Below, piece after piece: positions 4,351 through 18,111 of a DNA stretch of 64,000 nt (the first letter of the stretch is position 1; every line of letters begins with the position of its first letter). The position numbers and the translations under genes were made by a program. The stretch is from Candidatus Thorarchaeota archaeon. Lineage in GTDB: Archaea > Asgardarchaeota > Thorarchaeia > Thorarchaeales > Thorarchaeaceae. The notes below the pieces were generated by a model. It was given only the letters and a program-made list of their open reading frames with translations. It searched no databases and was not told the origin of the DNA. Where the stretch lies: the NCBI GenBank assembly GCA_963726195.1, contig CAVSBO010000003.1:320001-384000 (forward strand), given 5' to 3'.

Positions 4351-5221
4351 TCACTGCATAGACCACGCTCGCTCAATGATGAACCCTCCAATTGCGGCGA
4401 ACAACTCCAGCATCAAGAGGCTATACCACGTCATCGCAGCCGCGGGTGACCACCAGTCCCATAGAGGAGGAGGGCGAAACGGGAATGCCCAATAGACATA
4501 CAACGAAAGCGGAGCTGATGATGATCATGAGCCCACAAACGACAAGACCCACTTTGGTCAGCAATCTTGTCTTGGCGACGTCTACTCTTTCTCTATGGCC
4601 AAGTGCCAATAGCAGTATTGCAACGCCGAATCCCACCATTAGGAGGCTCAATACGCTGACGGCGAACATAAACTCTGAAGTACCAAGTGCCGACAACAGT
4701 ATTGCAGTGCCGAATCCCAGTACTAGGAGGCTCGATAGGCAAACGGTCAGCATAACCTCTGAAGTACTCTGAGGCATCGAGTGGTCACCCTCAGAGTACA
4801 CTGATGACGACGCTCGCTCAATGATGAGTCCTCCAATTGACGCAAATAGCGCCAGTACTAGAAGGTGATACCAGCTCATCATAGCAGCGAGAGACCAGAA
4901 GTCCCAATCCAGAGGGGAGCGCCATGAGAATGCCCAGTACATGTTCAAAGAAAGCGGAGTTACAGTAATCATGAGCCCACAGAGGACAAGACCCGCTTTG
5001 GTCAGCAGTCTTTTCTTGGCGATGTCTTCTTTTTCTCTGTAACCAAGTGCCAACAGCAGTACTACAACGCCGAACCCCACCATCAGGAGGCTCAATACGC
5101 TGACGGCGAACATGAACCCTGAAGTGCCAAGTGCCGACAACAGTATTGCAGTGCCGAATACCAGCACATCCAGGCTCAATATGCTGACGGTGAATGCAAC
5201 CTCTGAAATACTATGAGGCAT
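4351..5221 (-). CDS. Multi-pass membrane protein made of two tandem ~145-aa units; frameshift near 4450-4490
   Basis: Second unit continues in another frame as AAMTWYSLLMLELFAAIGGFIIERAWSMQ*, matching the end of unit 1. Confidence 0.65.
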
Positions 5222-5238
5222 CGAATGCACGCCCTCGA
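4351..5238. repeat. Diverged tandem duplication with 444-bp period and nested 84-bp (28-aa) sub-repeat
   Basis: ATGs at 5221 and 4777 in near-identical context; cgctcgctcaatgatga occurs at ~4367 and 4811. Confidence 0.9.
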
Positions 5239-16388: not shown

Positions 16389-16784
16389 TCGCCGCCCAAG
16401 AACTCATTCAGAAACCTGTCCTCGGAGACCGACCAGTCAGGATAGTTGATCAAGACCTGCTCGACAAATCGATTCCAAAGACCCTCCTCCCGCTCGTAGA
16501 GAACGAGCCCGTCGTGTGCAATTCTGTGAGCCAGTGACCAATTGACATCCTCAATTGTGACGAAATCGAAGGCGCGCTCAGGACCTGTGAACTCGCCAGT
16601 CAGGACAACCCTTAGTTGCGATCTCTCTAGCCTCGATAGTGAAGGTACTGATACTGCGACGTCGTGGTCACTTCTTGGTCCTGATTCGTCCCTCAGCTCT
16701 GGACCCAAATAGAACTATGAAGTCAATCGGACAATTCGCGCTTGACAAGACTCGCCTCACGATGTCTTCCGAATCCAAGTGCAT
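16385..16784 (-). CDS. Minimal nucleotidyltransferase (MNT) antitoxin; frameshift near 16680
   Basis: MHLDSEDIV...IVLFGSRAEG joins in another frame to RSDHDVAV (GSx10DxD); GLVLYE. Confidence 0.85.
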
Positions 16785-17129
16785 GATTAATCTCACCAAG
16801 CTGTCACGTGGCTGCCTTGAGCCCTGTCCGATAACGAGAATTAGCGTCAGTCCATATAACGCTTGGGACTCGCGTGTTTTTCCACATAGGATACCATCTG
16901 TCGTTTCTGGTTCTCTTCTTCTCCAAGCCTATCTTGTGGGGCCAGAGTAAGCATCGGACCAATCTCGAACGTCCTTCTTCTTGCCCCACGGCGTATTTTC
17001 TGTATTATACTCTGCTATGACTTTCCTTCAATTGCCGATAGCAGGTGCTTTTCGCAGGTAATTCTTGTCCACAACTTGCTTGAGAATGAAATCCGCCAAA
17101 TCTGCTCTTGAGATGGCTGTTCCTACTTG

Positions 17130-17319
17130 ACCGTTCATTGTTAGTTGGACAAAGTTGGACACAGGAGTCTCTGTCCGCCCAGAAACGGCACTGGGCTCAA
17201 ACTCCTTGAGGTCAAGTTTGTGTCGTTTCAACCTCGAAGGCTGATTCCTTATCAGGGCATATAAGCTCCTACGAGGAGGTGTCCAAGTTTGTCCCAGCTT
17301 TCTGCAGCTGCCGCGTGCC
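17130..17319 (+). mobile_element. Non-autonomous ~188-bp mini-element (MITE-like), copy 1
   Basis: Interrupts a CDS; subterminal inverted doublets gttggacaaagttggacac / gtgtccaagtttgtcccagc; homologous to copy 2. Confidence 0.85.
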
Positions 17320-17529
17320 CTGAGTGCGAGAGCTTCAATTGACGCGCTCAATTTCAGAGCGAAAGCAACGATTGCGCTGGTAAAACTCATGATGCGTCCA
17401 GCATACGAAGAGATTGTCCACGTTGCAGAAATTGTCCGGGGCTCCGATCGCGATCGGACGATAGTACGCTTATCATTACTCAACAATAATCCCAAATCCG
17501 GTAACGTTAGAGTCGGCTACATAAGCAAG

Positions 17530-17717
17530 GGTTGACAACAGCTGCATAGAAGTTGGACAATCTTGGACATTCTGGAGTAGGAGCTTAAATAGCTCGGACC
17601 AGACTTCTCTTTGAGGTTGACTCGACACACTCCAGCCTCAAGGAGTACGACCCCAGTGCCGTTTCTGGGCGGACAGAGACTCCTGTGTCCAACTTTGTCC
17701 AACTAACAATGAACGGT
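17530..17717 (-). mobile_element. Non-autonomous ~188-bp mini-element (MITE-like), copy 2, inverted relative to copy 1
   Basis: 17652-17717 is the exact reverse complement of 17130-17195 (66 bp); the rest is diverged but colinear. Confidence 0.85.
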
Positions 17718-18111
17718 AGATGTTATGATGAGCTGGCGTACGCCCTGACTCTCCATCGCGGCAAGTATGTTTCGCATTCCTTGCGCAAGTGGCTTTCCCT
17801 TCTTTCGGGCGCGCGGACCAAGCGTGCTAATGACCGCATCCGCGGCGTTCATTGCGGCCGCAATTGCCTCTTGATCTGACAATTCGCCTTAGACAACCTC
17901 CAAGTGTTCGTTCTGCATGTTGAGCTTGGAAGGGTTGCGAACGTATGCAACAATGTCATTTCCTGAAGCAAGAGCTTGTTCTACAACAGGTCTTCCTGTG
18001 CGTCCGGTTGCGCCAAAAACCAGCAGTTTCATCTTTCATCCTCTTGTATGTAGTACTTCAAATTCCCGTCACATTCATCGATAATCTAATGTCTTCCAAA
18101 GAGCTATCAGT

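Follow-up and report, generated by a model that had tools for sequence, protein, structure and literature searches.

Miniature elements of Thorarchaeota, probably non-autonomous derivatives of an IS607-family transposon that are moved in trans by its TnpA and encode its guide RNA

Transposons of the IS607 family have neither terminal inverted repeats nor target duplications, and carry instead an imperfect inverted repeat that lies at unequal distances from the two ends (PMC6188088, Chen et al.). Their ends contain short, helically phased repeats to which the transposase TnpA binds cooperatively, and the dinucleotide GG is found at both termini and in the target (PMC6188088). Gene-less mini-elements are excised in trans by TnpA, which yields a circle and a seamless donor joint (PMC10690162, Žedaveinytė et al.). 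The target of CboTnpA, TGGG, is also the TAM of the associated TnpB, the last letters of the ωRNA scaffold are UCGG, and target and self are told apart by the G at position -3 (PMC10690162). Stand-alone, mobilised ωRNAs are already known for OMEGA systems (PMC10691335).

In this study, two short inverted sequences, copies A and B, were analysed in a stretch of 64,000 nucleotides (the window; contig C3, 320001-384000) of a Thorarchaeota genome assembly of 2.9 Mb. We consider it highly probable that A and B are non-autonomous miniature derivatives of a Thorarchaeota IS607-family transposon, that they are moved in trans by its TnpA, and that they probably encode its guide RNA. The outer parts of the two copies form an inverted repeat of 82 nt that is 96% complementary (repeat finder); the outermost 65 nt are identical (65/65), whereas the remaining part is identical at only 76 of 125 positions. 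Both copies terminate in CC at both ends and differ in the 7 nt beside a conserved GCAGCTG. A GTTGGAC doublet with 10-bp spacing starts 11 nt from one core, and an inverted doublet lies ~23 nt from the opposite core. All of the features listed in an earlier note on this DNA, namely two inverted copies, CC cores and subterminal TTGGACA doublets of 10-bp period, are present in both copies; of its two end-to-doublet distances, 11 nt was retained and ~19 nt was corrected to about 23 nt. Its limits of 17130 and 17717 were also narrowed, since both positions are the A/T adjoining the outer cores, and the pair itself spans 17131..17716. The features of the two copies are as follows (A and B denote the copies, plus and minus the strands of the window).

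17131..17319, plus strand of the window (IS/tnpB sense minus): copy A of the miniature element, core to core, with LE at 17319 and RE at 17131
17530..17716, minus strand of the window (IS/tnpB sense plus): copy B of the miniature element, core to core, with LE at 17530 and RE at 17716
A 17131..17132, B 17715-17716: RE core dinucleotide (CC on the plus strand, GG in IS sense), placed by GG in 44/44 copies and by the joints of the empty allele
A 17318..17319, B 17530-17531: LE core dinucleotide
A 17145..17162, B 17685-17702: RE doublet of the TTGGACA-type repeat in 10-bp phase, putative TnpA binding sites by analogy to IS1535 (PMC6188088)
A 17280..17296, B 17553-17569: LE doublet of the TTGGACA-type repeat, in the orientation opposite to that at RE
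A 17304..17317, B 17532-17545: conserved CAGCTGC palindrome and a 7-nt low-constraint spacer (N7)
A 17163..17235, minus: three conserved helices, putative ωRNA scaffold (helix 1 at 17208-17235, helices 2 and 3 at 17163-17206)
B, plus: the same three helices, putative ωRNA scaffold (helix 1 at 17613-17639, helices 2 and 3 at 17641-17684)
A 17257..17265 (minus), B 17584-17592 (plus): TATA-like box of A/T only, candidate archaeal promoter from its column composition
A 17111..17130 (minus), B 17717-17736 (plus): predicted guide segment, the flank beyond RE, from its position relative to RE under the IS607 model (PMC10690162)

A genome-wide profile search (nhmmer, 19 contigs) returned 18 full-length copies in the assembly, together with 7 matches to the first ~65 nt only (RE in IS sense) and 3 to the last ~45 nt only (LE). 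The idea that the pair represents a family was thereby upheld, other copies being abundant far beyond chance. Among 61 searched genomes of the same taxonomic family, 42 were matched, covering 13 of 16 genera, and all 27 matches retrieved from nine other genomes were full-length. Copies within the present genome are 75-90% alike, which was counted against recent mobility here. An alignment of 44 copies from 10 genomes was used for the junction and helix statistics given below. Three further observations were made during these searches. At C8:160744-162709 of the same genome, three miniature copies lie within 2 kb, two arranged in tandem with 77 bp between them and the third inverted, and this cluster is a second candidate site of element-driven rearrangement. 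Many contigs of related assemblies start or end ~77 nt from an RE copy (e.g. contigs C8, C16, C20, C57, C91, C94 and C95 of G042, at ~77-139), and assemblies of Thorarchaeota MAGs may often break at members of this repeat family. At C5:38041-38604 and C10:107267-107989, miniature copies are situated within a few hundred bp of TnpB genes of ordinary length and of other families, which could reflect chance or an insertion preference near other elements.

The junctions of the 44 copies, read in the transposon sense, are strongly patterned. At LE, the flank shows A in 29/44 and G in 41/44 copies, followed by GG in 40-42/44 and an element T in 36/44; at RE, the element ends in ...AAC and GG (44/44), after which come T (40/44) and an unconserved flank. 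From this junction logo, the preferred target is (A/T)GGG·T, the reverse complement of ACCCT, and the CC seen on the plus strand of the window is the GG crossover dinucleotide of IS607. Strand exchange would take place at this GG, or at the overlapping GT of the shared GGT. A natural empty allele was found in contigs of two peat-metagenome runs that are ~94% identical to the window. Along these contigs, 16713-17129 is followed on the opposite strand by the stretch from 17532 to 17320/17340, after which the sequence resumes at 17715 and beyond; three letters are shared at the joint 17129/17532 and two at the second joint (to 17715), and the middle stretch measures 213 nt. They prove that both insertions were precise, with nothing duplicated beyond the ACC/CC that is present once in the empty site, and they confirm the cross-paired empty sites with ACCCT and the lack of a classical target duplication that had been reconstructed from the window. 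The assembled genome contains no circle-junction or head-to-tail pattern of the element.

The origin of the miniature element could be traced through longer elements with the same ends, a search for which had been suggested in the earlier note; they were found, and the enzyme enclosed is an IS607-family TnpA, not an integrase or an IS110 transposase. An element of 8.1 kb (L024 1070-9219), on the same contig as the window and about 0.5 Mb off, carries the LE of the miniature element beside tnpA and its RE after a tnpB-like gene, and its LE is nearly identical to that of copy B, N7 included. When 8147 bp were excised in silico at the shared GGTT of this element (L024), an ORF of 301 aa was restored, and in another long element, L025, a short-chain dehydrogenase (SDR) ORF reappeared on excision of 7637 bp. 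The seven right-end-only matches all proved to be 3' ends of tnpB-like genes (Cas12f1-like TNB domain), and the homology between the miniature element and these seven 3' ends extends over ~85 nt and then stops; the element-specific segment, which includes the A/T box and helix 1, is missing from the full-length elements. Three parts are fused in the miniature element: LE (~47 bp), the element-specific segment of ~60 bp and the last ~85 bp of RE, these ~85 bp being the 3' end of tnpB in the full element.

TnpA (L024:1150-1776) consists of 208 aa, with an N-terminal HTH of the MerR type at residues 1-51 and a Resolvase domain at residues 66-190. It scores 174 bits against the NCBIfam model of the IS607 transposase (cut-off 110), its closest solved structures in the PDB are TnpA of ISC1904, ISC1926 and IS1535, and its gene is the sole Resolvase-domain gene in the assembly. 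The statement that no recombinase is encoded within the window holds, TnpA being encoded elsewhere on the contig. Mobilisation in trans by a recombinase was likewise supported in that the ends are common to a recombinase-bearing element, while the class of enzyme had to be changed from tyrosine recombinase or IS110 to IS607 serine recombinase. The description of the element as MITE-like, non-coding and non-autonomous with recombinase-type ends is borne out by the ends shared with an IS607-type parent; having neither terminal inverted repeats nor a target-site duplication, it is MITE-like only loosely. The subterminal, asymmetric repeats, the phased doublets, the GG core and the absence of a duplication are all IS607 traits, and the features that had seemed odd in the window are explained by them.

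The tnpB-like gene of the sole tnpA-bearing element is split into two frames. In an intact TnpB-like copy of 722 aa (P0001), the D/E/D residues of RuvC and the zinc finger are retained. This protein of ~720 aa scores below every curated TnpB cut-off, and at least 249 relatives of ~700-720 aa were found for P0001, most of them without a source name; those named belong to Thorarchaeota, with one exception from Promethearchaeota, and by these names the genome was assigned to Thorarchaeota. The ~720-aa TnpB-like protein is likely to be the partner nuclease of the miniature element. The genome as a whole (2.9 Mb) is rich in TnpB and poor in transposases, with 35 TnpB TNB-domain matches against one serine-recombinase gene. 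A conserved divergent gene pair, comprising a giant protein of 1223-1848 aa and the ~720-aa TnpB-like gene, was also observed in IS607-like elements of 7.6-8.1 kb (L027:2690-10168, corresponding to C16:21689-29167; L024:1886-9188; L025:1090-8559; and L063:4216-12106), and tnpA is absent from most copies. The giant protein has no Pfam match, two compared copies are ~26% identical, and a motif of the PD-(D/E)xK type is apparent by eye; the same pair occurs on an unrelated metagenome contig. The Aloposons of Heimdallarchaeia, which integrate at tRNA genes and carry giant-gene pairs, were considered and found to be unrelated to the miniature element.

Three helices were recognised in the right-hand ~110 nt of the miniature element (tnpB sense). 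In the 44-copy alignment, 89.9% of the helix cells are paired, compared with 38-52% when the partners are slid by 1-3 columns, and none of 500 shuffles reached the observed helix values. Both partners are changed in nine helix pairs, as compared with 3-4 pairs in the slid controls, among copies that are related to one another; one such covarying pair is UA in 16, CG in 14, UG in 7, AU in 2 and GC in 2 copies. Compensatory changes across genera occur in helices 1 and 2 (18 and 9 cells, one pair each). Strand specificity is weak, with 74 G-U versus 42 A-C cells and 89.9% versus 86.0% pairing on the two strands, the tnpB-sense strand being favoured. A box situated some 25-30 nt upstream of helix 1 consists purely of A/T in nearly all 44 copies, with T and A interchanged; it resembles an archaeal TATA box and is a candidate promoter of the element's own RNA. 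As regards derivation of the scaffold from an ωRNA, the last ~85 nt align with the 3' ends of tnpB, and the flank is unconserved beyond one T. The arrangement suggests a stand-alone ωRNA gene, the flank beyond RE of the miniature element being its presumed guide. Since neither helix 1 nor the TATA-like box is represented in the full-length elements, the scaffold may lack parts that the nuclease needs. A further-reaching proposal can be offered tentatively: the element may be a self-contained mobile guide-RNA gene, in which its own archaeal promoter and a newly acquired 5' hairpin have been placed on the last 85 nt of the tnpB/ωRNA region. Present in most genera of the family, such a gene would supply the Thorarchaeota-specific ~720-aa nuclease with a dispersed library of flank guides, and would parasitise the transposase and the nuclease of elements that mostly lack tnpA.

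It is possible, though rather unlikely in our judgement, that the element is mobilised by the IS607 TnpA and has no functional guide RNA, the helices and the A/T box being leftovers of the tnpB 3' end or serving transposition or termination. Such an explanation is favoured by the weak strand asymmetry of the wobble pairs, by the lack of a homologue of helix 1 in the full-length elements, and by an Rfam scan of 16800-18100 (E up to 10) that gave only two chance-level matches and neither an IS607 reRNA of the RAGATH-18 type nor another family. It is opposed by the compensatory changes in helices 1 and 2 across genera and by the A/T-only box, which holds its composition through T/A swaps in the 44 copies. 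To our knowledge, serine recombinases, which act on duplex DNA, have no requirement for hairpins. Moreover, ωRNAs that are mobilised on their own already have a precedent (PMC10691335). The reading of the miniature element as an IS607 derivative that probably encodes a guide RNA is preferred here.

The two copies are inserted in a gene for an NAD(P)H-binding protein, of which the following parts were recognised.

17715..18032, minus: N-terminal part of the host gene, PF13460 NAD(P)H-binding, profile 1-98
17892-18032 and 17715-17888, minus: sub-pieces of the N-terminal part, profile 1-44 and 46-98, respectively
17320..17529, plus: inverted 210-bp middle segment of the host gene, profile 106-156
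17031..17132, minus: C-terminal part of the host gene, profile 164-183

Because the middle piece is coded on the plus strand and both flanks on the minus strand, the middle 210 bp are inverted relative to the flanks. An in-frame stop at 17889-17891 inside the N-terminal part is consistent with decay following disruption of the gene. A 70-aa query with the middle piece found no orthologue among 40 relatives. Copy A is nearest to the copy at C5:38041, and the nearest relatives of copy B are the end of the tnpA-bearing element and copies from two sister genomes. In the history of the locus, insertion into the gene of two copies from different sub-lineages, 213 bp apart and oppositely oriented, was followed by recombination between A and B, which inverted the intervening 210 bp. 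Three routes may be envisaged for this inversion, namely homologous exchange within the 65-bp identical parts, a TnpA-catalysed LE x LE reaction or a TnpA-catalysed RE x RE reaction, and all three would fit the pairing of the flanks equally. In the RE-proximal part, where A and B are identical (65/65), other copies are also 97-98.5% identical, and the identity of A and B therefore cannot separate homologous recombination from TnpA-catalysed inversion. At another place in the window (4361-5236), two families of direct repeats, of 269 nt (85% identity) and 154 nt (73%), each with a spacing of ~444 bp, together amount to a ~445-bp unit duplicated in tandem.

Two like sites in inverted orientation that flank a short segment, in a genome encoding a serine recombinase of the invertase/resolvase superfamily, could also be viewed as a programmed invertible switch (phase variation) of the 210-bp middle. 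We regard such a switch as very improbable, since the host gene is broken whichever orientation the segment takes and contains an in-frame stop besides; A and B belong to different sub-lineages, relatives carry an intact, empty gene, and the occupied, un-inverted form was present on none of the metagenome contigs. Two independent insertions followed by inversion remain our preferred account of the locus.

The 7-nt spacer N7 had been viewed as a variable coupling sequence, an interpretation that was not sustained. One N7 7-mer is shared by 11 of the 44 copies, from three genomes, and a second one by 4 copies, including the tnpA-bearing element, and comparison of N7 with the flanks of all other copies gave matches no better than those obtained with shuffled flanks. 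N7 is a low-constraint spacer that travels with the element and is inherited within sub-lineages, not a coupling sequence. If strands are exchanged at a fixed dinucleotide, the element should take no flank sequence with it, and it takes none. A MITE of the tyrosine-recombinase type (Tn916/Tn554-like) or of the IS110/IS1111 type, which the subterminal repeats, the dinucleotide core, the lack of a target duplication and the differing 7 nt resemble at first sight, is hardly credible, given that the ends are common to an element encoding an IS607 serine recombinase, that an IS110-type DEDD transposase (PF01548) had no match in the assembly (88.9% complete), that the sole tyrosine recombinase (one PF00589 match) lies on a contig (C17) devoid of the miniature element, and that N7 is inherited in sub-lineages and unrelated to other flanks.

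The IS607 model can be written as a series of steps. TnpA would use its N-terminal MerR-type HTH to bind the TTGGACA doublets of 10-bp phase at the two ends, pair the ends, exchange strands at GG and excise a circle, leaving a seamless donor joint. The excised circle would then integrate at another GG. Transcription from the TATA-like box through the helices, across RE and into the flank would give a stand-alone ωRNA with the flank as its guide. A TnpB-like nuclease directed by this RNA could cut the empty (A/T)GGG-plus-guide site, and homologous repair could restore the copy.

The elements described here agree in many respects with the known systems. As in the IS607 family, GG is present at both termini and in the target, the subterminal repeats are unequally spaced and helically phased, and gene-less minis are, in the model, mobilised in trans. 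The arrangement shared with IS607, IS1535, ISC1926 and the mini-IS of CboIStron comprises an HTH serine-recombinase TnpA, the absence of terminal inverted repeats and target duplication, and a tnpB that abuts RE. The correspondence with CboIStron extends to the target/TAM (NGGG type) and to the end of RE (...CGG), which are AGGG and ...ACGG in the miniature element, and TGGG and UCGG in CboIStron. Unlike the described IS607 systems, the present one is a natural derivative of ~190 bp that occurs throughout an archaeal family and has a segment of its own (A/T box and hairpin) between the ends, and its parents are 7.6-8.1 kb long, with a giant unknown gene and a TnpB-like protein of ~720 aa. Like the stand-alone ωRNAs and PATE-like elements of IS200/IS605 OMEGA systems, the miniature elements are short and non-coding, keep the transposon ends together with a putative guide-RNA scaffold, have a flank-derived predicted guide, and occur scattered through genomes in which effector-encoding copies are present as well (PMC10691335, PMC10055086). 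The best-described stand-alone ωRNAs, however, are associated with Y1 (HUH) single-strand transposition and hairpin ends, whereas the ends are of the serine-recombinase type here and the RNA role is inferred. Classical DDE MITEs are likewise small, non-coding, multicopy derivatives of an autonomous element by internal deletion; they differ from the miniature element in having terminal inverted repeats and a target-site duplication. The family is not a new class of element, and it is notable for being widespread in Thorarchaeota, for carrying a promoter-like segment of its own and for its association with an uncharacterised, long TnpB-like clade. The term 'undescribed' can be kept only in the sense that this particular family has no Rfam match, since the kind, IS607 mini-elements and mobilised stand-alone ωRNAs, has already been described (PMC10690162, PMC10691335).

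By this analysis, a suspected new class is replaced by a precise and testable model, and the annotation of Asgard archaea gains a defined repeat family with its boundaries, target motif, parent transposase and partner nuclease. Gene disruption, contig ends and inversions are effects of this family. Should the RNA part of the model be true, the miniature elements would readily show where the scaffold passes into the guide, and would predict (A/T)GGG as the TAM of an uncharacterised and unusually long TnpB-like clade. This nuclease clade comes from the archaeal lineage nearest to the eukaryotes, and would be relevant to the TnpB-Fanzor-Cas12 story and to the discovery of genome-editing tools.
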